From Treponema sp. (GTDB taxonomy: Bacteria > Spirochaetota > Spirochaetia > Treponematales > Breznakiellaceae), in contig JAIROT010000070.1 in the NCBI GenBank assembly GCA_031257385.1, positions 1 to 45,146 on the forward strand: a stretch of 45,146 nucleotides of DNA, read 5' to 3'. A model generated the notes under the pieces. It was not told where the DNA came from and searched no databases. It was given only the letters and a program-made list of their open reading frames with translations. The position numbers were made by a program, and so were the translations under genes. Below are positions 32,044-45,146 of the stretch, in pieces (positions within the stretch are counted from its first letter, which is position 1; each line of letters begins with the position of its first letter).

Positions 32044-32775
32044 ATGGCTTCAAGTAAAATCGGGACCAGGCGGGAAAGCGGCCTGCACCGGATATTAAAA
32101 TTCCGCTATGCCGGCCCGGAGGGACAAACCGAGGTAGAAGCCGGAGGCTACGTGGCTGACGGGCTGAGCGCCGAAGGGGAATTTATCGAAATCCAAACCA
32201 GCAGCTTTGCCCCGCTGAGGCAAAAAGCCCGGGCACTGGCCCTGCGGGGCGGACTGCGGATCATTTACCCGGTAATTGTCGCCAAATATATCGAAGTACT
32301 GGACAAACGGAAAAAACCCATGTACCGGAGGAAAAGCCCCCGCCGCGGAAGCCCCTGGGACCTGTTTAACGCCCTGCTCTACGCCCCGGAACTGCCCCTG
32401 ATCCCCGGCCTCCGCATAGAGCTTGCCCTGGTGGATGTTACGGAAAAACGTATATGCGACGGCAAAGGCTCCCGGCGCCGAAAGGGGCAAAGTATCCTCG
32501 GCCGTGAACTCTCCGCCTGGCATGAAAGTATCACCCTTCAAAGCCTTAAAGATTATCTCCGTTTTGTTCCCTTCAAAGGGGACGAGGAATTCACCTCTTC
32601 CCTGCTTAGCGAACGGGCGGGAATAGACACTTCCACCGCGCAAAAAACCCTCAATGTGCTTCACAAACTGAAACTCGTCGAAAGAATTGGGAAAAAAGGG
32701 AATTTTTTGGTGTATAGACTTAGGGCTTATCCGGGAATGAGCCGGGATAACCGGAATCACAGCCTTCGGATATGA
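32044..32775 (+). CDS. Hypothetical protein with PD-(D/E)XK nuclease-like N-terminus and C-terminal winged helix
   Basis: ESGLH..LK, E..VAD, IEIQT pattern. C-terminal FTSSLLSERAGID..TAQKTLNVLHKLKLVERIGKKGN resembles wHTH. Confidence 0.6.
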   Translation: MASSKIGTRRESGLHRILKFRYAGPEGQTEVEAGGYVADGLSAEGEFIEIQTSSFAPLRQKARALALRGGLRIIYPVIVAKYIEVLDKRKKPMYRRKSPRRGSPWDLFNALLYAPELPLIPGLRIELALVDVTEKRICDGKGSRRRKGQSILGRELSAWHESITLQSLKDYLRFVPFKGDEEFTSSLLSERAGIDTSTAQKTLNVLHKLKLVERIGKKGNFLVYRLRAYPGMSRDNRNHSLRI

Positions 32776-33524
32776 AAACCGCCGTCTACATCAACATAAT
32801 TACCGGTGGTGTAGAGAAAACTGTCGCCCGCGAAAACGGAAACCGCTTCGGCTACATCTTCCGGCCTGCCCCAGCGGGCGATGGGAAAGATCCCTTCCCT
32901 GATAAGGCGCTCGTATTTTTCGCTCGCACCGGCGGTCATGTCGGTCTGTATAACACCGGGCCGTATTTCGTGGACAAAGATGCCTTCTTTTGCCAGACGA
33001 TCGGCGTAAAGCCTGGTAAGCATGGATATCCCCGCCTTTGACACGCAGTATTCACCCCGGTTTATCGATGAAACTTCAGCGGAACAGGAGCCGATGTTGA
33101 TAATCGTCCCCCGTTTTTTACCCGTAAGAGGCTGGCCGATCATGGCTTTGGCGGCAAGCTGGGTTAAAAACATAAGGGATTTTGTGTTGGTATTCATCAC
33201 ATAATCGTAGCTTTCTTCGCTCATCTCAAGCAGGTCCGCCCTCAGTTTCGGCGCGACGCCGGCGTTATTCACCAACACATGCAGGCCGCCGAATTTATTC
33301 AGCGTTTCATCAATTATCCGTCCGCGATCAGCGGAGGCGGAAATATCGGCGCGGATATAAAGATAATCGCCGCAAACCGCGGCAAGCTCATCAAGGTTTT
33401 TCGCACAGTCAGACTGTTCACGAGTCCCCGCCAGGGCCACATTAAAACCATCTTTCGCAAGGCGCAGGCTTATGGCAAAGCCGATGCCCCGCGAACCGCC
33501 GGTAACAATCGCGGTTTTTTTCAT
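32757..33524 (-). CDS. Short-chain dehydrogenase/reductase (3-ketoacyl-ACP reductase-like)
   Basis: TGGSRGIG, NNAG, YCVSK and PGVIQTDM motifs. Confidence 0.9.
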   Translation of the reverse strand: MKKTAIVTGGSRGIGFAISLRLAKDGFNVALAGTREQSDCAKNLDELAAVCGDYLYIRADISASADRGRIIDETLNKFGGLHVLVNNAGVAPKLRADLLEMSEESYDYVMNTNTKSLMFLTQLAAKAMIGQPLTGKKRGTIINIGSCSAEVSSINRGEYCVSKAGISMLTRLYADRLAKEGIFVHEIRPGVIQTDMTAGASEKYERLIREGIFPIARWGRPEDVAEAVSVFAGDSFLYTTGNYVDVDGGFHIRRL

Positions 33525-34879
33525 GCCGTCTCCCCTTCTTCAGCGCCGTGCCGCGCTTCTTTGTAGATGGGCGCGTACACTTCGCTGTCCCGTATCACGC
33601 AGCCGGTCCTGCCGTGGTCCCGCATGATCTGGGTACACTTTGAACAGGCAATGCAGCATTTTTCTTTTTTCGCCGCCCCTGTTTTGAATACGTCCGCGGG
33701 AAGATCCGGATAGGCGAAGGAAGAGCGCCCCAGCCCCACAAAGGAACAGCGTTTCGCGGCCAGGTTTGCCGCCCCCGCCTGGGGTATGAACTGCCTGAGC
33801 CAGCTGTAACCGTTTCCCACAACGGGAACAGACCCCGCTGTTTTTTGTACCAGTCCGGTAAATCCAAAAAGCCGTTCAATGCTCTCAAGCGGATGCTCTT
33901 CCGGTATGGGAATACCCATACTTGAGCTGTCAAAAGGGCGGGTCACCTGGGGATAGATATAGTAGGGATTTCCCGCGGAGTTGCTCAACAGATCCACACC
34001 CGCCGCGCAGAGATCGAGTACCAGGCGCTCAGGTTCGGCGGGAGCAAATTTCAGAAAATCGGTTTTGTCCTGCCCGAAGCCATACGGATAGGGGTGGGCG
34101 TCAAACACGTTAAAGCGGCAGGCTGTGATAAAATCGTCACCGCAGACCCTGCGTACCTCTTTAATAATATTTAGCAGCAATCGGGTTCTGTTTTCATAGG
34201 AACCGCCGTATTTTCCTTCCCGCGTGTGGCTTGCGAGCAGTTCTGATAACAGATAACGGTGACAGGCCTTTATATCAACGCCGTCAAAGCCCGCTTCCCG
34301 TGCAAGCAGCGCCGAAGCGGCATACACGGGAACGAGGCTTTCAAGGTAGTCGTCGCTTACCGGAATCGTGGCGGCAGTTACGCCGGTACGGGGATCGAGA
34401 ATTGGGTCATGCTGGGGAACAAGGGGCCGGGGCCGGCACCCTTCCGGCCTGGAATAACGGCCCGAATGTGTTAGTTGCAACACATATACCGGCTCATGGC
34501 CGAAACTGTTCCTGCAAAGCGTTTTTGTTTCAGTGACCAGAGCCGTAAACTGCCGTAAGTTTTTTTCGGTGAGCATCATTTGCAGCTCGTTGGCGCGGCC
34601 TTCCCCAATGACTGCGCAGGCCTCCCACCAGACAAGACCGTAAGCCCCGGCGGCCAGACGCTTATAACGCCGCCTGACCAGTTCCGAAGGGCTGCCGTCC
34701 GGACCGGAGTCGCAGCCCTCCATGGGAAGTACCGCGAATGAATTGGGGGCGTTTTTGTGCCGAATCCTGACTTCCTGCCGCAGCGGGGAAAGATCCCCGC
34801 TGAATTCAAGGGTTAAACCCAGGGATTTTGTTTTTTCGCGGATCTCTTCCGGCGAGTTAAAATTGAACCGTTCATGCAC
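33521..34879 (-). CDS. NADH:flavin oxidoreductase (Old Yellow Enzyme family) with Cys cluster
   Basis: PMEGCD, LQLTHSGR, AGFDGVDIKACHRYL, YGGSYENR, VGLGR and CIACSKC..C motifs. Confidence 0.85.
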   Translation of the reverse strand: MHERFNFNSPEEIREKTKSLGLTLEFSGDLSPLRQEVRIRHKNAPNSFAVLPMEGCDSGPDGSPSELVRRRYKRLAAGAYGLVWWEACAVIGEGRANELQMMLTEKNLRQFTALVTETKTLCRNSFGHEPVYVLQLTHSGRYSRPEGCRPRPLVPQHDPILDPRTGVTAATIPVSDDYLESLVPVYAASALLAREAGFDGVDIKACHRYLLSELLASHTREGKYGGSYENRTRLLLNIIKEVRRVCGDDFITACRFNVFDAHPYPYGFGQDKTDFLKFAPAEPERLVLDLCAAGVDLLSNSAGNPYYIYPQVTRPFDSSSMGIPIPEEHPLESIERLFGFTGLVQKTAGSVPVVGNGYSWLRQFIPQAGAANLAAKRCSFVGLGRSSFAYPDLPADVFKTGAAKKEKCCIACSKCTQIMRDHGRTGCVIRDSEVYAPIYKEARHGAEEGETA

Positions 34880-34880
34880 C

Positions 34881-36407
34881 TTATGCCGCCCTTGCGCCCT
34901 TTTTCTTTGCCAGTATCGCCTGTTTTATCCTGGAGCTAATCGGCAGCCGGCTGACAATCACCAGCAGGGTGATGATAAAAAGTATGAGGCATATCGGCCT
35001 TGTAAAAAACGGGGTGAGGCTGCCGTCCGAAAGCACCAGGGCGCGCCGCAAATTTTTGTCCAGAATATCCCCCAGGATGATCCCCAGAACCAGGGGCGCC
35101 ATGGGGTAATCCATCTCCCGGAGCAGAAAACCCAGAATGCCGAACACAATCATAATGCTCACGTCAAAAAGCCGGGCCTGAAGGGAAAAAGACCCCACTA
35201 CACAGAGGGTAAACACAACGGGCATGAGTTTTTGCCGGGGGATGAGCAGCACCTTCACCAGGCTCTTGACCATCAAAAGCCCCAGGATAAACATTGCGCA
35301 GGTGGCCAGCAGGGTCATTGCCGTCACTTCGTAAACAAAGCTGGGGAACTCCACCATGATCAGGGGCCCCGGCCTGACCCCGTGGATCAGCATGGCCCCC
35401 AGCAGCACCGCCGCGGGAGCGGAACCGGGGACCGCCAGGGTAAGGACCGGAATAATGGCCCCGGGGACGCAGGCGTTGTTCCCCGTTTCCGCGGCCAAAA
35501 GCCCCTCAATGCTGCCCTTGCCGAATTTTTCCGCTTCTTCGGGTTTTGCCCCCCGCTTCGCGAGGTCGTAGGACACCCAAGCGGCAATATCCTCCCCCAC
35601 CCCCGGCACCGCGCCGATAAAGGTTCCCAGAATCCCCGACCGGATGATCGTCTTCCGGTATTTGAATATCTCCCGCAAGGGCGGGAACAGGCGGTGGATT
35701 TCCGTTTTCACCACCTCAAATCTGGTATGCCGCATGACGGAAATAATCTCCGCGAACCCAAAGGCCCCCACCATGGCTGGAATCAGGGCGATGCCGCTGG
35801 CCAGGTTGAGGCTGCCGAAGGAATACCGCACATAGGCGTGGATTCCCTCCATACCGATCATGGCAACAAAAAGCCCCAGAAAACCCGCGATCCACCCCTT
35901 CAGGGGATCTTTGGGGGCGGTCAGGTTGCCGCAGATCACGATCCCGAAAATGGCGAACCAGAAAAATTCAAAAGACTGGAATTTCAGGGCGATAGTTCCG
36001 ATAAGGGGGGTAAAGAGGGCCATGGTAAGCATCCCGATCATGGAGCCTAAAAACGATCCGGTGGTGGCGATACTGATGGCCTTCCCCGCGAGCCCCGCCT
36101 TGGCCAGGGGAAACCCGTCCACCGTGGTGGCCGCGTTGGCGGGAGTTCCCGGAATATTAAGGAGAATAGCGCTCCGGCTCCCCCCGTAGATCGAACCGAT
36201 ATACATACAGATAAGGATCAGAATCGCGTCATTGGCCTCCATGCTGAAGGTAAGGGTAGTCAGGAGGGCCACCCCCATAGTCGCCGTAAGCCCCGGCAGC
36301 ATCCCGATGATAATCCCCAACTGGGTGGCCCAGAGGGCGTTAAAGATAGTACGAAAATTCAAAAACCCCAGCACCGCCCTGCCGAACATTTCCACACCTT
36401 GAAACAT
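34881..36407 (-). CDS. tctA: Tripartite tricarboxylate transporter large permease TctA
   Basis: GMLPGL, YGGSRSAILLNIPGTP, AAETGNNA and LAVPGS motifs. Confidence 0.93.
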   Translation of the reverse strand: MFQGVEMFGRAVLGFLNFRTIFNALWATQLGIIIGMLPGLTATMGVALLTTLTFSMEANDAILILICMYIGSIYGGSRSAILLNIPGTPANAATTVDGFPLAKAGLAGKAISIATTGSFLGSMIGMLTMALFTPLIGTIALKFQSFEFFWFAIFGIVICGNLTAPKDPLKGWIAGFLGLFVAMIGMEGIHAYVRYSFGSLNLASGIALIPAMVGAFGFAEIISVMRHTRFEVVKTEIHRLFPPLREIFKYRKTIIRSGILGTFIGAVPGVGEDIAAWVSYDLAKRGAKPEEAEKFGKGSIEGLLAAETGNNACVPGAIIPVLTLAVPGSAPAAVLLGAMLIHGVRPGPLIMVEFPSFVYEVTAMTLLATCAMFILGLLMVKSLVKVLLIPRQKLMPVVFTLCVVGSFSLQARLFDVSIMIVFGILGFLLREMDYPMAPLVLGIILGDILDKNLRRALVLSDGSLTPFFTRPICLILFIITLLVIVSRLPISSRIKQAILAKKKGARAA

Positions 36408-36416
36408 AGGCCCTCC

Positions 36417-36920
36417 TTAAGGCAGCCGCACCAGGAAAAGCCGCTCAAAGGTAAGCGTCACCAGGGCGGAGACGATAAGCGCCAGCAGCGCCGCAATCGC
36501 GATCTTTTTTATCCGGCCCCTCCACGGGGTCCCCCGTTCATATTCAAAACAGACCACAAAGCTAAAGACGAACAAAAAAGTAAGCGCCGGAAAATAAATT
36601 TTCCCCAAAAGAACCGCGTAAAAAACACACACCGCCAGGGTCAAAAAAATCCGCCGGGTGGCCGGGTCCTGCACAAACGCTTTAACCGACCTTCCCCGGA
36701 TCCCCACCTTTCCTTTGGAACGGTACAGGGAACGGACAAACATGATAAAACTCAAAGCGAAAATCACAGATCCCAGCAGCGCCGGTAAAAGCCCCGGCGC
36801 GGAATAAACATCCCCCTGAATCACCGGCATCTTCAGGGCCAGGGCCAGGGCGGCGATACCGAAGGCCATCAATATGAGGGAGGTATAAAAATCCGCCCGA
36901 AGCATGTTTTTTCCTGTCAT
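36417..36920 (-). CDS. tctB: Tripartite tricarboxylate transporter small subunit TctB
   Basis: Four to five TM helices, APGLLP, C-terminal FERLFLVRLP. Confidence 0.88.
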   Translation of the reverse strand: MTGKNMLRADFYTSLILMAFGIAALALALKMPVIQGDVYSAPGLLPALLGSVIFALSFIMFVRSLYRSKGKVGIRGRSVKAFVQDPATRRIFLTLAVCVFYAVLLGKIYFPALTFLFVFSFVVCFEYERGTPWRGRIKKIAIAALLALIVSALVTLTFERLFLVRLP

Positions 36921-36944
36921 CGTGTACCTCAGAATTTTTTATGA

Positions 36945-37094
36945 GGGGGAAGGCCTTCCCCCCCGGCCCAGCCCGCCTCCGGCGGTCTTGGCCCCCCCCT
37001 TCTCCTGGGGGCTCCGCCCCCAAACCCCGGCGCGCGCCCGGCGCCCAACAAACGCCGCCGCGCTCCCAAAAAGCGAGCCCGGCTTTAGCCGGGC
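36945..37094. repeat. GC-rich REP-like palindrome cluster
   Basis: GGGGGAAGGCCTTCCCCC perfect palindrome (36945-36962), GGGGGCTCCGCCCCCAAACCCC (37007-37028), GCCCGGCTTTAGCCGGGC (37077-37094). Confidence 0.6.
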
Positions 37095-37106
37095 GGACGC
37101 CCCGCT

Positions 37107-37149
37107 TAGGGCAACGCTGATTAACTTGACGCTAATCAGCGTTGCCCTA
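37107..37149. repeat. 17-bp perfect inverted repeat, probable IS5-like TIR-only element
   Basis: TAGGGCAACGCTGATTA-N9-TAATCAGCGTTGCCCTA. Confidence 0.65.
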
Positions 37150-37192
37150 TTATTTTTCTCGTTTTCCTGCGAAAAACTGCAAAAAAACCACA

Positions 37193-37242
37193 TTAAAGTA
37201 GCACTGATTTATTCTCGATTGAATAAATCAGTGCTTCCTTAG
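37193..37242. repeat. Inverted repeat with YTAR flanks, probable IS5-like TIR-only element overlapping the tctC stop
   Basis: TTAA-AGTAGCACTGATTTATTC-N6-GAATAAATCAGTGCTTCC-TTAG. Confidence 0.65.
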
Positions 37243-38273
37243 GGCCTGGGTATTCCCACCGTGTCCGGGGAAACCACCGCCTTACCCGCTTCGTAATACA
37301 GCCAGGCCACAGGCTGATAAAATTCGTATGCCTGATTCTGGGCCGCCGCGCCGGAGGCGGGGGCAAAAACCGCGCCGTTTTCTTTGGCGTATCTCTGTAT
37401 CTCCTGGCTGCTAACGATCTTTTCCGTCCAGACCTTGTTCAGGGTGTCGATAACTTCCCGTGGCACTCCCCTGGGAATAAAGATGCCGAAATAGTTGGGT
37501 CCCAGCTTAAAATCGGGAATCCACTGTTTCACCGAAGGGATCTTTCCGTATCCGTCAAGGTCCAGATCGGTTTCGGCAAGTACCGCCAGGGGCCGTATCT
37601 TGCCCCCCCGGATCATGTTGGCCTGTTCCACCGCCAGCTGGGGAGTCACCAGGACTTCCCCTGCCACCACCGCGGTAACCGCCGGGTTCCCGCCGTCATA
37701 GGTGACATGCTTGTAATCGATCCCCGTATACTTGCGGACCATTTCAATATTGACATGACCCGATGAAGTCTGGCCCGCGGTGGCCACCCCTATCTGTCCG
37801 GGATTGGCCTTAAAATCGGCCAGCAGCTGATCAAAGGTCTGGTACTTTGAATCCGCGTTTACCCCGATGACGCCCACGTTGCCGACAGTGAGGAAAATAT
37901 CCCAGTCATTTTTAATGTTGGTCTGTAACATACCGGTGGTCTGGTAGGTGGCCAGATCAACCGCGGCCCCCGCCGTCCAGGTATAGCCGTCTTTTACGGC
38001 ATCCATACAGTTTTTGGTGCCCGTGGAACCCGACGCGCCGGGCTGGTTGTCAATGACGATCCGCACCCCCAGGGCTTTTTCCAGTTCCGCCGCCGTAACC
38101 CTCGTGATCTGATCGGTGGAGCCGCCCGCGCCCCAGGGCACAATAATGTGAATCGGTTTATTTGGCTGCCAGCCCCCGTCCGCCGCCTGTCTTTGAGCTG
38201 CGGCGAAAAGGTTTCCCGCCGCGATAAGGGTTATAAGCCCAAGAACAAGCAAAAATCCCCATGACTTTTTCAT
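37239..38273 (-). CDS. tctC: Tripartite tricarboxylate transporter substrate-binding protein TctC (Bug family)
   Basis: PIHIIVPWGAGGSTD, NQPGASG, DGYT and YDGGNPA motifs; signal peptide. Start ATG 38273 behind GGAGG. Confidence 0.92.
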   Translation of the reverse strand: MKKSWGFLLVLGLITLIAAGNLFAAAQRQAADGGWQPNKPIHIIVPWGAGGSTDQITRVTAAELEKALGVRIVIDNQPGASGSTGTKNCMDAVKDGYTWTAGAAVDLATYQTTGMLQTNIKNDWDIFLTVGNVGVIGVNADSKYQTFDQLLADFKANPGQIGVATAGQTSSGHVNIEMVRKYTGIDYKHVTYDGGNPAVTAVVAGEVLVTPQLAVEQANMIRGGKIRPLAVLAETDLDLDGYGKIPSVKQWIPDFKLGPNYFGIFIPRGVPREVIDTLNKVWTEKIVSSQEIQRYAKENGAVFAPASGAAAQNQAYEFYQPVAWLYYEAGKAVVSPDTVGIPRP

Positions 38274-38391
38274 AAGTTCCTCCATAAAAAACATTATCTA
38301 TGACAGAAGCATAAATTAACTCAGTATAGGGGGCTTTTTACGGCGGAGCAATGATGTTTTTTGTCTGAAAATTTGCGTTTATTGCAGTGTC

Positions 38392-39237
38392 TTAGGGCAG
38401 GGTTCCGGCAATTTTTCGGTATTGCAGGGGGGAAATTCCCCGTATCTCATGAAACGTCCGGATAAAGTGTTCCGGATTTTCATAGCCCACAGCGCCGCTG
38501 ATTTCCGCTACCGGCTTGTTGGTGTACTGGAGGAGATGCTGGGCCTCGTTGATACGGTAGCGGATGAGGAAACTTTTGAAGCCGAAACCGGTTATTTCTT
38601 TAAACTTCCGGGAAAGATAATATTTACTCACAAAATACTTCCGGGCCACATCGTCAAGGACAATATGCTCCCGAAAATGCAGGGCCACATAATTTTGAAT
38701 TTCCGTGACGGTACCGATGATGTTAACATAGTCCCCGGCGGAAAAGAGGCCGGGGTTCTCCCGGTACAATTCGATCAGGATCTGGATGATGAGCATAATG
38801 ACCCGGCTGCTCCACATGGGTTTCTTTTCCTCACATTCCCTGATGGTTTCCTCAAACACTAGGGAAAGCCTTTGGGCAAAATCCTCCCGCAGGAGGACCA
38901 GATTGCGGGCGTCCGGCTTATGGTACAAAAAAAGAGAGAGGAGTTTTGGTTCCCGCAGGGCGTTCAGGATGAGTTGGTTGGTGACGGTAAACACATAACG
39001 TTTGTAGGGATATTTGCGGATGGAAACATTATGGGTGTCAAAGGCTCTGATGATGACAAGCGAGTCCTTCCCCGCCAGGTAATCCGCCCCGTTTATCCTG
39101 AAATTTGCCAGCCCCTCACGAACCAGCACCAGTTGATGATACCGGTGAAAATGTACGCCTATCCCATTGTAGTCGGTGTTTTTTTGAAAATAGGTAAGTA
39201 TGGGGAGCATATCGCTCAAATTGTTAATTTCATGCAC
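38392..39237 (-). CDS. AraC family transcriptional regulator
   Basis: Cupin HFH N-terminus; C-terminal SKYYLSRKFK...EISGAVGY...FIRTF...SPLQYRK. Confidence 0.93.
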   Translation of the reverse strand: MHEINNLSDMLPILTYFQKNTDYNGIGVHFHRYHQLVLVREGLANFRINGADYLAGKDSLVIIRAFDTHNVSIRKYPYKRYVFTVTNQLILNALREPKLLSLFLYHKPDARNLVLLREDFAQRLSLVFEETIRECEEKKPMWSSRVIMLIIQILIELYRENPGLFSAGDYVNIIGTVTEIQNYVALHFREHIVLDDVARKYFVSKYYLSRKFKEITGFGFKSFLIRYRINEAQHLLQYTNKPVAEISGAVGYENPEHFIRTFHEIRGISPLQYRKIAGTLP

Positions 39238-39274: not shown

Positions 39275-39340
39275 GGATTTTTACGGAGAGGGCAGGACCG
39301 GCGCATCATTTTGACTATCATACCGGCCTAACGGCCGGCT

Positions 39341-39405
39341 TGGAGTTTTGCGCCTTCGCGTCTGTTTAACTATCGGCGGGCGGTCCGAAGAGGCGCAAAA
39401 CTCCA
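39341..39405. repeat. 15-bp perfect inverted repeat downstream of the sulfur operon (possible terminator, stabiliser or MITE remnant)
   Basis: TGGAGTTTTGCGCCT (39341-39355) and AGGCGCAAAACTCCA (39391-39405). Confidence 0.55.
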
Positions 39406-39486
39406 GGAATCTTCCCCAGAGCGCAGAGGATGAAGTTTATATGCGCCGGCCCTGGGGTATCGGCCGCCTTTCCTGTCGCCATTGCC

Positions 39487-41007
39487 TTATCCTCCGGAGA
39501 GCGTGCGAAGGGCGCGGATCAGTTTGTCAACTTCTTCCGGCGTGTTGTAAAAAGCCAGGGAGGGGCGCACCGTTCCCTCAAGGCCGAAGAAACGCAGCAC
39601 CGGCTGGGCGCAGTGATGCCCCGCGCGTACCGCTATTCCCTGGGTATTGAGGAAGGCTCCTACATCCTCGTTGCTGTGGCCGTCCAAAACAAACGAGAGA
39701 ACGCTTGCTTTTTCCGCAGCCGTACCGACGAGGCGAAGGCCCCTGATTTTTTTCATCTCGCCCGCCGCGTAACGCAGCAGTTCATGTTCCCATGCGGCGA
39801 TGTTGTCCATGCCGATACCGCTCACATAATCAAGCGCCGCACCAAGGCCCACCGCGCCGGCGATGTTTCCGGTGCCCGCCTCGAATTTTGCCGGGGCCTT
39901 TCGGTATTGGGTCTGTTCAAAGCTTACGTCGGCAATCATATTACCGCCGCCCTGGTAAGGCCGGGCCGCTTCCAGCACGTCGGACTTGCCGTAGAGGATG
40001 CCAATGCCGGTGGGGCCGAATATCTTGTGCCCCGAAAAGACAAAGAAATCCGCGTCAAGGGCGCTCACGTTGACCGGCACGTGGGACACCGACTGCGCCC
40101 CGTCGATTAAAACTTTTACCCCCCGGCTATGGGCGATCTGTATCAGTTCCCCCACCGGCGCGATTGTGCCCAGGGCGTTTGAAACATGGGCCGCGGCTAC
40201 AAAACGGGTACGACTGTTAAAGAGGGCCGCATATTCGGAAAGAATGATCTGACCGCTTTGGTCTATGGGGGCAACCCGCAGCAGGGCCCCGGTTTCCTCG
40301 GCGATGAGCTGCCAGGGGACGATGTTGGCGTGGTGTTCCAGCATGGTGAGGATTATCTCGTCTCCGGGTTTGAGCAATTGTTTAACGTAGGCGTTGGCGG
40401 CGAGGTTGATCCCCTCGGTGGTTCCCCGGACAAAAACGATATTGTCTGCGGAGGGCGCGCCGATGAAGGCCGCGGCCTTTTTCCGGGCGTCTTCGTAGGC
40501 GTCGGTGGAACGTGAGGCCAGCTCGTGCGCCCCCCGGTGAACGTTGGAATTTTCGTGTTCGTAATACTGAACGAGCCGGTCTATTACCGCCCGTGGCCGC
40601 TGGGTCGTGGCGGCGTTGTCCATCCACACGAGGTCCTTTCCGTTGACTTTTTCGGCAAGAATGGGGAAATCCGCCCGTATCAGCTCAAGGCTTTTCGGGC
40701 CGATAAAAATGCCGGAAAGGAGGGGCGCGGATTGACGCGGCCGGACCGGCGCTCCGGTTTCACGGACGGGGGCCGCGTTGTACGCATCCCGGGGCAGAAC
40801 CCGCGGCGCATAGGCGCCGGGCCGAAACGCCGCGTCATCGGCATACGGCAGGGCCCTGCCGGGCGGTATTGCCCTGGTTATGCCGCCCCTGTGGTCCGCG
40901 CTTACACTTTCTTCGCCGCCGAATTCAGGAAAATACGCCCCGGCCAGCGCGGCCACCTCTTGAGCGGAGGGCAGAGCGAAGGCTTCCGGCCGGCTAGCTG
41001 TAATCAT
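39487..41007 (-). CDS. Family 2A encapsulin cargo cysteine desulfurase (SufS-type) with disordered N-terminal domain
   Basis: DNAATTQ, NVHRG, FSGHK (PLP Lys) and RAGHHCAQP (catalytic Cys) motifs. About 100-aa Pro/Ala/Arg-rich N-terminal extension. Start ATG 41007 overlaps the shell gene end. Confidence 0.92.
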   Translation of the reverse strand: MITASRPEAFALPSAQEVAALAGAYFPEFGGEESVSADHRGGITRAIPPGRALPYADDAAFRPGAYAPRVLPRDAYNAAPVRETGAPVRPRQSAPLLSGIFIGPKSLELIRADFPILAEKVNGKDLVWMDNAATTQRPRAVIDRLVQYYEHENSNVHRGAHELASRSTDAYEDARKKAAAFIGAPSADNIVFVRGTTEGINLAANAYVKQLLKPGDEIILTMLEHHANIVPWQLIAEETGALLRVAPIDQSGQIILSEYAALFNSRTRFVAAAHVSNALGTIAPVGELIQIAHSRGVKVLIDGAQSVSHVPVNVSALDADFFVFSGHKIFGPTGIGILYGKSDVLEAARPYQGGGNMIADVSFEQTQYRKAPAKFEAGTGNIAGAVGLGAALDYVSGIGMDNIAAWEHELLRYAAGEMKKIRGLRLVGTAAEKASVLSFVLDGHSNEDVGAFLNTQGIAVRAGHHCAQPVLRFFGLEGTVRPSLAFYNTPEEVDKLIRALRTLSGG

Positions 41008-41935
41008 AGTAGTCACCGACCTCAACATCTTCCAGCACGGCGAGGGCGTCATCGGCAAGGACCGCCGCGGAGCAGTACAGGGACAAGAGGTACGAGGCGA
41101 CGCCGTCGTCGTTTATACCCCTGAAACGAACCGAAAGCCCCCGTGACTGTTCGCCGGGCAGGCCCGTCTGGTAGAGACCGATAACCCCCCGCTTCGCTTC
41201 GCCGGTACGCGCCAAAAGAATATTGGTTTTGCCCGCCTTGCCCTTGGGGTTCTTGAGGCCGTCCACAAAAAGTTTGTCCGTCGGAATAAGGGGAATTCCC
41301 CGCCACGCGATAAAAGTACCTCCGGCGATATTCACCGTTACCGGAGGAACGCCGCGGCGGGTGCACTCCCGTTCAAAGGCCGCGATTGCCCTTGGGTGGG
41401 CAAGAAAAAACGAGGGGTCTTTCCATACTTTGGAGATAAGCTCGTCAAGATCATCGGGCATGGGCCGGCCGTATCTGGCCTGTATCCGCTGGGAATCGGC
41501 GGCGTTTTTCAAGAGACCGTAGCCGTCGCTGTTGATGATCTGGCTTTCCTGCCGTTCTTTCAGGCTTTCAATAGTCAGGCCGATCTGTTCCTTCACCTGA
41601 TCAAAGGGGGAGCTGTACACATCGGAAATTTTGGTATCGACATTGATAATAGTCGAAATTGAGCTGAGTTCATACTCGCGGGGCCTGGTCTGGTATTCGA
41701 CATAGCCCTGGGGGATTTCCGTCTTTTTGGGGTCCTGGCTGCACAGCGCATCCAGCGGCGTTTCTCCCTCCGCCACCCTGTTCACACGGTAAATACCCGC
41801 CGCAAGCCCTTTGAATTCCAGTACCCTGGTCAGCCACCGGGGGGTAAGGGAACCAAATTGAGGCGGAGTCTTGGTAATGTCCGCCAGTTGATACGCCGCG
41901 TCCCGTCCTAACGCGTTTACAATTTTTTCAGCCAT
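40994..41935 (-). CDS. Family 2A encapsulin nanocompartment shell protein (SrpI / major membrane protein I type)
   Basis: ALG..AA.QLA..TKT.PQ...TPRWL, GIYRVNRV, PREYEL, LKERQE, GLLKN, PDDLDELI, WRGIPLIP, GLSVRF and SYLLSLYCSAAVL match SrpI-type shells. 313 aa with no cNMP insertion; adjacent desulfurase. Confidence 0.93.
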   Translation of the reverse strand: MAEKIVNALGRDAAYQLADITKTPPQFGSLTPRWLTRVLEFKGLAAGIYRVNRVAEGETPLDALCSQDPKKTEIPQGYVEYQTRPREYELSSISTIINVDTKISDVYSSPFDQVKEQIGLTIESLKERQESQIINSDGYGLLKNAADSQRIQARYGRPMPDDLDELISKVWKDPSFFLAHPRAIAAFERECTRRGVPPVTVNIAGGTFIAWRGIPLIPTDKLFVDGLKNPKGKAGKTNILLARTGEAKRGVIGLYQTGLPGEQSRGLSVRFRGINDDGVASYLLSLYCSAAVLADDALAVLEDVEVGDYYDYS

Positions 41936-41985
41936 GATGTGTTCTCCTTGAACAATAAAGTGATCCCCCGCAGGGGTTGGAAACC

Positions 41986-43158
41986 TTAATATACGGGCAG
42001 GGTGGTGTCAACATCCCTTGCCCAGGCGTTTACGCCGTCTTCCAGATTGAGAAGGCGTCCCGTATAGCCCGCCTCCCTGAGCGCCCGTATGGCAAAAATA
42101 CTCCGCCGGCCTATCTTGCAGATAAACACCGCGTCTACCGCCGGATCAAATTCTTCCATGCGCCGGGTCATCTGCCCCAGCGGGATCGCCTTTGCCCGGG
42201 GGAATTTTACAATGGCCCGCTCGTGGGGTTCCCGAATGTCGATAATCTGCAGGGGATCATTCCGGTCAAACCGCGCTTTGAGTTCTTTGGCGCTGATCGT
42301 CTCAACAGGCTCCTCGTCCTGATTTTTTTTGAGGCCGCAAAACTGCTCGTAATCAATAAGCCCATGGATAGACGGCTCCCTGCCGCAGATGGGGCAATGG
42401 GGATCTTTGTCCAGCTTGAGTTCGCGGAATTTCATTTTCCACGCATCGAACAGCAGCAAGCGTCCGGTAAGACTGTCACCGCCTCCCGCAATAAGTTTGA
42501 TCACCTCGTTGGCCTGGAGGCTTCCCACAATGCCGGGAAGCACCCCCACCACACCGCCCTCCGCGCAGGAAGGCACCAGCCCCGGAGGAGGGGGCTCCGG
42601 GTAGAGGCAGCGGTAGCAGGGCCCCTCTTTGGCATAAAACACCGAGACCTGCCCTTCAAACTGAAAGATCGATCCGTACACGTTAGGTTTCCCCAAAAGC
42701 ACACAGGCATCGTTTACAAGGTAACGTGTCTGGTAATTATCGGTACCGTCGGCAACCACATCAAAGTCCCTTATAATGTCCAGGGCATTGGCGTCGGTAA
42801 GCATCGTATTAAAGATAATAACGTTACTATGGGGATTGATGCTCCTGATGCGGTCCTTCGCCGAAGCTACCTTGGGCCGCCCGATGTCCCGCGTCCCGTG
42901 AATCACCTGTCGCTGGAGATTCGATTCTTCCACAAAATCAAAATCCACGATCCCCAGAGTCCCCACCCCGGCGGCGGCAAGGTACAGTGCCAGCGGCGCG
43001 CCGAGGCCTCCGGTTCCCACCAGCAGCACCTTCGCCGCCTTGAGCCGTTTCTGCCCGTCCATCCCCAGCTCCGGCAGGAGCAGATGACGACTGTAGCGGG
43101 CAATTTCCCCGTTGGATAAACCGGGAAGTTCCCGGTCCTGTATGATACTTTCGCTCAT
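41986..43158 (-). CDS. moeB: MoeZ/MoeBR: ThiF/MoeB E1-like adenylyltransferase fused to rhodanese
   Basis: RYSRH, GTGGLG, SNLQRQ, CYRC, SCAEGG and CPIC motifs; C-terminal rhodanese DIREPHE...ICKIGRRS. Confidence 0.93.
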   Translation of the reverse strand: MSESIIQDRELPGLSNGEIARYSRHLLLPELGMDGQKRLKAAKVLLVGTGGLGAPLALYLAAAGVGTLGIVDFDFVEESNLQRQVIHGTRDIGRPKVASAKDRIRSINPHSNVIIFNTMLTDANALDIIRDFDVVADGTDNYQTRYLVNDACVLLGKPNVYGSIFQFEGQVSVFYAKEGPCYRCLYPEPPPPGLVPSCAEGGVVGVLPGIVGSLQANEVIKLIAGGGDSLTGRLLLFDAWKMKFRELKLDKDPHCPICGREPSIHGLIDYEQFCGLKKNQDEEPVETISAKELKARFDRNDPLQIIDIREPHERAIVKFPRAKAIPLGQMTRRMEEFDPAVDAVFICKIGRRSIFAIRALREAGYTGRLLNLEDGVNAWARDVDTTLPVY

Positions 43159-43266
43159 GCCCTAAATCCCTTGTATATTAGCCGCGTCCGTGAGGTCCGC
43201 GCCTGCATTTCTTCATTCGTGCCGGGGGGGGTTGACACCCGGAAACCCTCCTTGCGGCGGGGAGCT

Positions 43267-43575
43267 TCAGGCCGGGCCTGCTGATTTCCCTCCGGCAATC
43301 GCCGGCACCAGCATGATCGTATCCCCCGCCGAGACGGCAGTCTCCAGCCCTTTGAGGTTTTTTATGTTCACGTCCCCCACAAAGACATTGACGAACGGGC
43401 GCAGTTCCTTTTGGCCCGAATCCGTCCTCTCCTGATACAGATGCTGTTTCAAATCCGGGTATGCCTCCGCCAGCGCCCCAATTGCCTCACCCGCCGTTGC
43501 GCCTTCGACGCTCACCTCGGATTTCCTTTCGGTAAAAGAGCGCAACGCCGTGGGGATTAAAATTGTTACCGCCAT
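43267..43575 (-). CDS. MoaD/ThiS/CysO-type ubiquitin-like sulfur carrier with 6-residue extension after Gly-Gly
   Basis: MAVTILIPTALR, GAT.GE, LRPFVNVFV, GD.I.LVPAIAGG followed by KSAGPA and stop. Confidence 0.9.
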   Translation of the reverse strand: MAVTILIPTALRSFTERKSEVSVEGATAGEAIGALAEAYPDLKQHLYQERTDSGQKELRPFVNVFVGDVNIKNLKGLETAVSAGDTIMLVPAIAGGKSAGPA

Positions 43576-44006
43576 GTTATATCCTCCTCTCTGAATTCGC
43601 TCCGGTCTGCCACAAGTTCCCAGCTTCGCAGTCCCGCGGCCTTTCCTTTTGCCACCGACACTATAACATAAGAATAGAAAGGAAGGGCGTTGTTTTTATC
43701 AAAATCCGAAGGAATTGCGGGATGATCGGGGTGGGAATGGTAAAAGCCCAGAATGTCCCGGTTTTGCCTCCGCGCTTCTTTTTCCGCGTGAAGGTAGTCC
43801 TCAGGGGTAATTTCAAAGCGGTGGTACTGTTCCGCGTCCTCCCTTTTGTTAACAACGGGCAGCAGGGACTCCGTTTCCCGCCTGTCCGGTGAGCCTCCCG
43901 TCCCGGCTTCGAGCTTCCCCAAAAGGACGCCGCAGCACTCGTTGGGGTAGGCCGCCTCGCCTTCCGCCCCTATGGCCGCCGCGTTTTCCGCGGAGAGCAT
44001 GATCAT
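43566..44006 (-). CDS. JAB/MPN+ (M67, Mec-like) metallopeptidase
   Basis: YPNECCG and FYHSHPDHPAIPSDFD (E...HxH-x7-S-x2-D). Start ATG 44006 overlaps the cysteine synthase stop (ATGA). Confidence 0.92.
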   Translation of the reverse strand: MIMLSAENAAAIGAEGEAAYPNECCGVLLGKLEAGTGGSPDRRETESLLPVVNKREDAEQYHRFEITPEDYLHAEKEARRQNRDILGFYHSHPDHPAIPSDFDKNNALPFYSYVIVSVAKGKAAGLRSWELVADRSEFREEDITWR

Positions 44007-44902
44007 CCTTCCCCCCAAAAAGTATCCGAAACATAGCGGGAACCGCCGTCGCACAGGATCGTTACTACCGCCGACCCTTTGGGCAGCGTTTTGGCAAGAT
44101 TCAACGCGGCGGCAACATTGGCGCCGGAACTGATACCGGCGTAAATCCCCTCTTCCCGCGCAAGACGGCGGGCCATCGCGTAAGCCGCGCCGGTGCTGAC
44201 CGGGGCAATTTCATCCGGCAGCGCAGGATCGTAAAAACCCGGATGCCCGGTACTGGCCATGTGTCTTGTTCCTTCTATCCCATGAAAGGGGGAATCGGGC
44301 TGAACGGCGATAACCCGGATATTTTTGTCATATTCCTTGAGCCGCCGTGAAACGCCGGTAAAAGTTCCCGAAGTCCCCGTCCCCGTAATAAAATGGGTAA
44401 CGGCGTGATTCGACTGTTCCCAGATTTCAACGCCTGTGGAAAGATAATGGGCGCACCAGTTGGCGTCGTTATAGTACTGGTTAGGAAAAAAATAAGCCGC
44501 CGGGTCCCGTTCCGCTTCTTTTTTTGCCGCGGCAAAAGCCCCCTCGGAACTTTCCAGCGGATCGGTCTCGACAATTTTGGCGCGGCAGCTCTTCATAATC
44601 GCCTTCCGTTCCGCGCCGGCATTTGCCGGCAGATACAAAGTAACCGGAAAACCCAGAACCGCGCCGATCATGGCGTAGGCAATGCCCGTATTACCGCTGG
44701 TGGCGTCGATAATAGTCTTTCCCGGCTTGAGGTCCCCGTCCGCTATCCCCTTGAGGATCATCGCCTTGGCGGCCCGGTCTTTCACCGAACCTGAGGGATT
44801 CAGGAATTCCGCCTTGGCGTACAGGGAAACGCCTTCACTTTCCCGGGAAAGTTTTTCAAGTTTTAAGAGCGGGGTATTCCCCACCAGGTCAAGGATATTC
44901 AT
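44003..44902 (-). CDS. PLP-dependent cysteine synthase (CysM-like)
   Basis: VGNTPL, KAEFLNPSGSVKDR, ATSGNTG, GTGTSGT and GISSGAN motifs. Confidence 0.9.
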   Translation of the reverse strand: MNILDLVGNTPLLKLEKLSRESEGVSLYAKAEFLNPSGSVKDRAAKAMILKGIADGDLKPGKTIIDATSGNTGIAYAMIGAVLGFPVTLYLPANAGAERKAIMKSCRAKIVETDPLESSEGAFAAAKKEAERDPAAYFFPNQYYNDANWCAHYLSTGVEIWEQSNHAVTHFITGTGTSGTFTGVSRRLKEYDKNIRVIAVQPDSPFHGIEGTRHMASTGHPGFYDPALPDEIAPVSTGAAYAMARRLAREEGIYAGISSGANVAAALNLAKTLPKGSAVVTILCDGGSRYVSDTFWGEG

Positions 44903-44969: not shown

Positions 44970-45019
44970 AATACCCATCGAATTACTATGAAAGTATCAT
45001 ACATAAACAGACCTGTCAA
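44970..45019 (-). promoter_or_regulatory. Putative sigma70 promoter of the sulfur operon (TTGACA-N17-TACTTT, extended TG) with an overlapping operator-like sequence
   Basis: TTGACA at 45019-45014. Immediately downstream TTTCATAGTAATTCGATGGGTATT (44993-44970). Confidence 0.55.
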
Positions 45020-45146
45020 GCCCCCCGCAGGGTATCGGCATTTACTCTCCTGCGCCTTGTCATGGGCATTAATGTGCCGGTTTTAGATCGAATCTTTCTT
45101 CCGCGCAAGGGATTGAAGCGGAAATCCCGCAGGAATTGCGGAGCAA

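Follow-up and report, generated by a model that had tools for sequence, protein, structure and literature searches.

The window analysed here is the whole 45,146-nucleotide contig JAIROT010000070.1 of Treponema sp. (assembly GCA_031257385.1), and its subject is a six-gene block in which an encapsulin shell and its predicted cysteine desulfurase cargo stand beside the genes of a ubiquitin-like sulfur-carrier pathway. The six open reading frames (ORFs) are all intact and lie on the minus strand, encoding in this order a pyridoxal phosphate (PLP) cysteine-synthase-like protein, CysM-like or O-acetylserine sulfhydrylase B (OASS-B)-like (44003-44902; 299 amino acids, aa; PF00291), a JAB/MPN+ metallopeptidase (43566-44006; 146 aa; PF14464), a ThiS-family, CysO-type sulfur carrier of ubiquitin fold in the form of a tailed precursor (43267-43575; 102 aa; PF02597), a MoeZ-type E1 adenylyltransferase with a C-terminal rhodanese domain (ThiF plus rhodanese; 41986-43158; 390 aa; PF00899 and PF00581), a family 2A encapsulin shell (40994-41935; 313 aa; NF041162 and PF19307), and a SufS-type cysteine desulfurase, the predicted shell cargo (39487-41007; 506 aa; TIGR01979). 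Successive junctions along the block measure -4, -10, +108, +50 and -14 bp, three of them overlapping. An earlier note on this DNA had described the same co-orientation, order and overlaps, which are confirmed from the ORF coordinates, and its naming of the six products is upheld by family scans.

Depth over the block genes is flat, at ~15-18x in the contigs of one public run, and the MoeZ-shell junction is spanned by contigs of public runs from two studies, ruling out an assembly chimera. The public run that matches the block best is listed as a termite gut metagenome and may be the source sample. Among named genomes, those closest to the window by their shell belong to Treponema and Spirochaetia; T. 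primitia and L. azotonutricia were isolated from termite gut, and the host is likely a termite-gut spirochaete.

The predicted sulfur store and the carrier arm

The shell passes the family 2A model NF041162 (478.9 bits, cut-off 380) and stays under the cut-off of NF041163 (379 against 400), its 313 aa showing PF19307 alone without the cyclic-nucleotide-binding insertion of family 2B. It aligns over its full length to the shells of Acinetobacter baumannii (8T6R; PMC10836720) and Synechococcus elongatus SrpI/CyD (6X8M; PMC8049743), and keeps the residues named as setting pore size in solved family 2A shells, whose pores of 3.7-6 Å are, by published account, too narrow to let proteins through (PMC8049743, PMC10836720). 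These homologous shells store elemental sulfur (S0) and are induced under sulfur limitation (PMC10836720, PMC8049743). Other features shared with family 2A encapsulins are the overlapping SufS-type cargo gene with its N-terminal extension, a serine acetyltransferase often present in the locus, and a predicted control by sulfur starvation. A loop insertion of the shell was considered as a docking site for MoeZ and is ruled out, as it is also present in carrier-less spirochaete shells.

The desulfurase exceeds the SufS cut-off (TIGR01979, 540.9 against 475.1) and falls slightly under that of the cargo model NF041166 (783.7 against 800), probably due to its short N-terminal extension. The latter measures ~110 aa in the window, with a median of 105 aa over 72 homologs, compared with ~225 aa in published family 2A cargo. 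It contains a conserved helix-like motif at residues 13-29, resembling the first published cargo motif, while the second cargo-loading motif was not recognised by eye. Regarding catalysis, the PLP Lys328 is kept in 81/81 homologs and the persulfide Cys466 in 80/81. By analogy with the homologous systems, the shell would assemble as a T=1 particle and package the desulfurase, with S0 accumulating inside.

Among solved structures, the carrier comes closest to chains 4N6E_B and 3DWG_C (E ~1e-22), the next match standing at 1e-13; 3DWG_C is the partner chain in the mycobacterial CysM entry, and both are presumably CysO proteins. The Gly-Gly of the carrier, invariant in 24/24 aligned sequences, is followed by a six-residue tail that the earlier note did not mention. 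Such a tail follows the Gly-Gly in 56 of 58 distinct carrier homologs, three of these being full MoeZ proteins fused in frame. Natural carrier-MoeZ fusions with an internal Gly-Gly occur at loci L085:12571-13989, L091:15195-16625, L102:5666-7096 and L299:7876-9354; they resemble ubiquitin precursors and would require cleavage by JAB. Thiocarboxylation needs a free C-terminal glycine, and fused MoaX is cut after its Gly-Gly (PMC4326299). With the Gly-Gly masked by either a tail or a MoeZ fusion, JAB therefore likely matures the carrier, and would likely have two jobs, this maturation and the release of the product.

Glu23, His90, His92, Ser100 and Asp103 of JAB are invariant in 63/63 homologs, and the zinc-site cysteines, Cys198 and rhodanese Cys347 of MoeZ are kept in 67-68 of 68, the active-site Cys347 in all 68; catalytic residues are conserved in all four enzymes checked. 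The MoeZ rhodanese is the sole rhodanese domain found in the genome, which is 88.9% complete. In this same 88.9%-complete genome no other ThiS-family carrier was found, ThiG being outside the search, nor any match to MoaE, 3'-phosphoadenosine 5'-phosphosulfate (PAPS) reductase or a nitrite/sulfite (NIR/SIR)-type reductase; from the missing PAPS and NIR/SIR-type reductases it follows that the host likely lives on reduced sulfur.

The synthase scores below all equivalog cut-offs (best model TIGR01138, 331 against 394). Its PLP Lys41 is kept in 61/62 homologs (one gap), and a basic residue at position 213, present in 62/62, aligns to Arg210 of E. coli CysM, which has been tied to thiosulfate and large sulfur donors (PMC9547175); judged from sequence, this residue fits the carrier and thiosulfate equally well as donor. 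The structure model (predicted local distance difference test, pLDDT, 89) has E. coli CysM as its top fold match, the fold search not separating CysK from CysM types (template-modelling, TM, score ~0.9 for all), and the mycobacterial CysM chain was not among the matches listed in a sub-region search with the synthase loop.

Conservation of the linkage

The locus survey comprised the best 80 of 111 genome loci with close shells (74-88% identity) and, being recruited by likeness to the window's shell, describes one clade and not the whole family. Synthase, JAB, carrier and MoeZ are all present in 53/80 loci, 49 with the set upstream of the shell and four with it downstream or inverted, while ten hold part of the carrier set and 17 none, many of both stopping at a contig edge. 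Where at least 3.3 kb of upstream sequence is available (57 loci), the complete set occurs in 46, two of its genes in three and none in eight. The linkage thus extends well past this genome, confinement to which the earlier note would have taken as a refutation. The 53 full loci derive from 51 genomes and nine phyla (Spirochaetota 23, Synergistota 8, Campylobacterota 6, Thermodesulfobacteriota 5, Bacillota 3, Pseudomonadota 3, and one full locus each in Planctomycetota, Myxococcota and Fibrobacterota), with T. primitia ZAS-10 and Lachnospiraceae ZAX-1 among the named strains, and synthase and JAB overlap in 45 of the 53. Of the 44 full loci that extend far enough beyond the desulfurase, 27 have a serine acetyltransferase gene, nearly always directly behind it, and the activated serine is therefore probably O-acetylserine; the block in the window has no such gene, a homolog lying elsewhere in the same genome. 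In 5 of the 17 loci without carrier genes a CysK-like gene (~40% identity; one above the cysK cut-off) directly precedes the shell. Other sulfur genes, including sulfonate, methionine and sulfate transporters, cystathionine lyase and cysK, come and go in the surveyed loci.

Shells of separate genomes cluster by phylum in the tree (Synergistota 93, Deferribacterota 98), which, together with the named strains and a plasmid copy, largely rules out a binning artefact as the source of the cross-phylum spread, and single odd phylum placements may be mis-bins. In MoeZ trees every shell-linked row falls on one side of a well-supported branch, along with a few unlinked rows, and several deep MoeZ groups match the shell tree (the latest MoeZ tree containing 44 chosen rows). 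In a set of 101 relatives, the window's genome included, a full shell is found in 11, each of which also has a close MoeZ, even where the two are unlinked; two relatives have shell fragments only. Broad phylum samples returned full-length 2A-type shells beyond the centre genome in 2/250, 0/250 and 3/250 genomes, both shells of the first sample carrying the block and the three of the third lacking it.

The synthase-less form was sampled in 150 genomes of the phylum of locus L067 and 250 genomes of the family of locus L099. Of the shell loci fetched, 18/23 and 5/6 have a full MoeZ, rhodanese cysteine included, immediately ahead of the shell, usually fused to the carrier and with JAB upstream, and a CysM-like synthase is present in none of these 18 and 5 MoeZ-shell loci. 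The synthase is thus not a fixed partner, being dispensed with in a sub-lineage that keeps JAB, carrier and MoeZ beside the shell. Since the MoeZ-shell adjacency outlives the loss of the synthase, JAB, carrier and MoeZ appear as the constant partner of the shell and the last enzyme as the variable one. Often near these loci are MetY-like, TusA-like and sulfite-reductase-like genes and a second ThiF with JAB. One example, at L286:2585-19863, sits inside a full sulfate-assimilation cluster with a sulfate ATP-binding cassette (ABC) transporter, adenosine 5'-phosphosulfate (APS) reductase, and cysD/cysN-like, sulfite-reductase-like, TusA-like, thioredoxin-like and MetY-like genes.

The mobilisable plasmid pACIB of Aliarcobacter cibarius carries a further copy of the block (L253:4025-14539) between cysteine and sulfate transporter genes and cysE-cysK; an IS110 element lies between its JAB and carrier genes, and an IS5 element splits moeZ, whose rhodanese end is annotated as a separate gene. 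Two genomes hold the whole block twice (L047/L048 and L053/L055), the former pair as near-identical copies in opposite orientation on one contig. Decayed copies at L026 (G042:C22) and L262 (G490:C23) show a shell fragment beside a desulfurase tail and a divergent second shell with an internal stop. In the window, short multi-copy intergenic repeats flank the block (39291-39460, 45021-45146 and 37091-37245, with 51, 17 and 65 BLAST hits genome-wide), at very high contig depth in public runs. Downstream on the same strand, positions 32757-39237 encode by family scan an AraC regulator and a TctC binding protein and, further on and by eye, a TctB/TctA-like transporter and flavin-oxidoreductase-like and short-chain-dehydrogenase-like ORFs; this neighbourhood is an unrelated catabolic unit.

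A predicted sulfur operator upstream of the block

With the window held out, expectation maximisation (EM) over 42 distinct synthase upstream regions yielded a palindrome of 23-25 nt with a log-likelihood of 185, versus 44-56 in six block shuffles run with fewer starts. In the training set 26/42 regions score at least 14 bits, and the held-out window scores 16.4 bits at 44971-44993 (strand not assigned). There the operator overlaps the -10 box of a candidate sigma-70 promoter on the minus strand (45019-44991; TTGACA, 17 nt, TACTTT, with TG-n before TACTTT). TTGACA recurs at a similar place in many homologous upstream regions. The earlier note had put the six genes behind one promoter, for which the evidence is indirect: the promoter was read by eye and is not listed by the consensus scan, and the operator overlaps it. 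The operator precedes the shell in 0/64 loci where MoeZ comes before it (mostly coding sequence, and a lenient test) and in 6/19 where MoeZ does not, two shell-first orders included. It is thus placed at whichever gene is first, which supports a single sulfur-starvation operon, and the six genes are probably one transcript under this predicted sulfur operator.

Throughout the genome of the window, 18 operator sites reach 14 bits, against 3-10 in five permuted controls, and 10 reach 16 bits, against 0-2, the best ones preceding sulfur genes. Eight of the 18 lie before sulfur genes, namely the block, two cysK, two Cys/Met lyases (cystathionine lyase included), metY and two sulfonate-type binding proteins; two more stand ahead of a nifH-like gene, and for the other eight the context is unclear or unrelated. 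A CymR-like Rrf2 repressor is likely to bind the operator, and two tandem Rrf2 genes (L277:3049-3947, G000:C273), which score 107.8 and 127.5 on the CymR model (cut-off 195), encode candidate binders, possibly acting as a heterodimer.

A separate island, L272 (G000:C15:13800-31100), has the operator of the block at both ends and inside. Besides nifH- and nifB-like genes and a divergent nifD/K-like pair that scores far under the nitrogenase cut-offs, it contains cysK and encodes ABC transporters of sulfonate type, methyltransferases of MtaA type, and a corrinoid protein together with its activator. It may be a nitrogenase-like organosulfur-scavenging system like the Mar enzymes, which are sulfur-induced (bioRxiv 10.64898/2026.08.20.746119).

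Proposed sulfur flow between shell and carrier

Four published operon types of family 2A combine rhodanese, acetyltransferase, shell and desulfurase, with carrier genes unnamed in the available text, which calls the remobilisation of stored sulfur unknown and proposes a rhodanese for it (PMC10836720); MoeZ occupies the slot of this rhodanese. The S. elongatus locus already has shell, cysK, acetyltransferase and rhodanese. Unlike in A. baumannii and S. elongatus, the rhodanese of the block forms the C-terminal domain of an E1 enzyme, accompanied by carrier, JAB and a CysM-like synthase. The presence of such a locus in a spirochaete, a combination that the earlier note did not know to have been characterised there, was already on record: Data S1 of PMC10836720 contains "Spirochaetes" 48 times, with rows for Leptospira and two Treponema, and its type 1 rows include T. 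primitia ZAS-2, T. azotonutricium, a Fibrobacter and an Aliarcobacter. The "associated rhodanese" listed there for T. primitia, F5YQC3, is a 390-aa ThiF-type MoeZ in the same 90% cluster as the MoeZ of locus L106. Supplement 2 of PMC8049743 places PALP genes beside 287/1273 shells, ThiF, ThiS and JAB being absent from its ten rows, and neither ThiF nor MoeB is named in the main texts, as available, of PMC10836720, PMC8049743 and PMC8346489 (the accessory-gene figure of the last lying outside this scope). No description of an encapsulin paired with a thiocarboxylate carrier, or of a relevant encapsulin in connection with termites (judged by titles and opening abstract lines) or Fibrobacter succinogenes, was found in the literature searched, mostly without subscription journals.

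On the carrier side, the block resembles the mycobacterial CysO/MoeZ/CysM/Mec pathway (PMC3227635, PMC9547175) in its CysO-type carrier, E1-rhodanese, JAB and PLP synthase, with catalytic residues intact, and differs from it in having all four genes in one block beside a desulfurase shell, in a carrier that in this clade would need trimming or is fused to MoeZ, and in an acetyltransferase often alongside. It also matches class 4c of Iyer et al. 2006 (ThiS/MoaD, E1-rhodanese, JAB and cysteine synthase), described as uncharacterised and patchily distributed; that description, in its available text, is without shell or desulfurase, the word "desulfurase" having 0 occurrences (PMC1779556). The block is thus a real, conserved operon variant that joins two known modules, probably under common regulation, and not a new kind of system; new are the operator overlapping the promoter, the masked or fused Gly-Gly of the carrier and the synthase-less sub-lineage. 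This sub-lineage with its MetY-like gene resembles the protein-thiocarboxylate methionine route of Wolinella succinogenes, in which a carrier with masked Gly-Gly is reportedly trimmed by a JAB peptidase; that route is said to be fed by sulfite reduction, to make homocysteine and to have no shell.

The preferred reading, on which we regard the arguments as evenly poised, is that a sulfur-shortage operon joins a desulfurase-loaded S0 store to a MoeZ-carrier-synthase-JAB arm that remakes cysteine, a small thiol ferrying the sulfur. At low cysteine a CymR-like repressor would leave the operator seen upstream; the packaged desulfurase, as demonstrated for its homologs, would convert cysteine into alanine and stored S0; and JAB would trim the observed tail of the carrier back to Gly-Gly. 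A small thiol, most simply cysteine exiting as cysteine persulfide, would deliver sulfur to the rhodanese domain of MoeZ; thiosulfate or polysulfide from outside would be accepted there too. Following the mycobacterial model, MoeZ would then adenylate and thiocarboxylate the carrier, the synthase would condense the carrier-thiocarboxylate with O-acetylserine, or possibly O-phosphoserine, and JAB would release cysteine. The flow of sulfur from shell to MoeZ, carrier and cysteine is our inference. The earlier note had the store discharging directly through the MoeZ rhodanese, which is unlikely, since with pores of 3.7-6 Å and their residues kept MoeZ cannot plausibly reach inside, so that a small-molecule shuttle or an unencapsulated enzyme is needed. 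In the homologous shells, glutathione left the amount of stored sulfur undiminished, while dithiothreitol (DTT) and cysteine were judged small enough for the pore (PMC10836720, PMC8049743).

Several observations weigh against this flow. Since one cycle consumes ATP and serine without any net gain of cysteine, it is worthwhile only for buffering over time or for scavenging outside sulfane sulfur; loading and unloading enzymes induced together look futile, and the shared operator accounts for the co-location without any flux. The MoeZ-shell junction, which also tells against one transcript, is the loosest of the block, overlapping in 0/57 loci and exceeding 150 bp in 11. An independent MoeZ search found, among its best 80 metagenome loci, 36 with the four-gene set and no shell (some on short contigs) and eight with a shell, all among the closest matches. 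Six of the 101 relatives have a close MoeZ and no detected shell (6/17 MoeZ-bearing). Conversely, in a 400-genome phylum sample 42/75 genomes of one other spirochaete family have shells, with carrier genes absent in 10/10 shell loci fetched. By score the synthase is nearer to enterobacterial CysM (216-226 bits; the thiosulfate-using E. coli enzyme 221) than to the carrier-using, O-phosphoserine-specific mycobacterial CysM (168-170), and four further cysteine-synthase paralogs are encoded in the genome. Also speaking against one transcript, the operator stays under 14 bits in the distant linked loci L139, L165, L253 and L257. Finally, one origin followed by transfer and retention may explain the linkage, and the linkage counts are therefore not independent events.

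Much of this would also be expected if the two halves were merely co-regulated neighbours sharing operator and mobile unit, with the carrier arm making cysteine from outside sulfane sulfur and the shell storing or detoxifying independently. Both halves are found alone, row 4c in Table 1 of PMC1779556 included, other sulfur genes drift through the surveyed loci, mycobacterial MoeZ takes thiosulfate in vitro (PMC3227635), and a single origin of the linkage is compatible with the trees. MoeZ, unlike the drifting genes, stays directly before the shell despite synthase loss and carrier fusion, and is kept in every shell-bearing genome among the 101 searched; we consider this explanation rather unlikely, though a serious one. 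Direct hand-over between proteins, by which MoeZ, without any small molecule in between, would take the persulfide from desulfurase that is free or half packaged, or would dock on the shell or open it, has been foreshadowed in proposals of desulfurases as donors for MoeZ-type rhodanese domains (PMC3227635) and of a rhodanese docking on family 2A shells (PMC10836720), and the cargo extension of about half the published length would suit it. The narrow, conserved pores exclude proteins, and the clade's one shell insertion recurs in shells without carrier genes, which makes this route improbable. Even less probable is that the carrier arm serves another product (homocysteine via a MetY-like enzyme, another thio-compound or protein tagging), so that the block would pass cysteine sulfur on, while the synthase works by itself with sulfide or thiosulfate. 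The genes around the synthase-less loci, with a MetY-like match in 15/18 of those of the second sample, point that way, as does the basic residue of the synthase, linked in E. coli CysM to the binding of thiosulfate (PMC9547175). Against it stand the tight coupling of synthase, JAB and carrier, the mycobacterial CysM partner among the nearest solved chains of the carrier, and MetY-like matches in only 7 of the 80 close loci, at 30-34%.

Returning to the small-thiol reading, a bolder extension, put forward tentatively and with more doubt than confidence, is that MoeZ, carrier and JAB form a dedicated exit route of the shell, with a ubiquitin-like precursor that JAB would cut, even out of a carrier-E1 polyprotein, and a final enzyme that can be exchanged between lineages (here a cysteine synthase, there a MetY-like enzyme), mobile over at least nine phyla of gut bacteria.

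Two open questions meet in this block, namely how family 2A shells give their sulfur back (PMC10836720) and what donates sulfur to MoeZ and CysO, stated as unknown for the mycobacterial proteins (PMC3227635). The block likely answers how stored shell sulfur is recovered and, with both halves under one predicted operator, both questions become testable in one six-protein system. At least one operon filed under the published "type 1" class has an E1 enzyme for its rhodanese, and the operator exposes a wider predicted sulfur-starvation regulon in the genome. For these symbionts, sulfur would accordingly be a limiting nutrient besides nitrogen and, if true, the exit route would be the first defined means of tapping encapsulated elemental sulfur.

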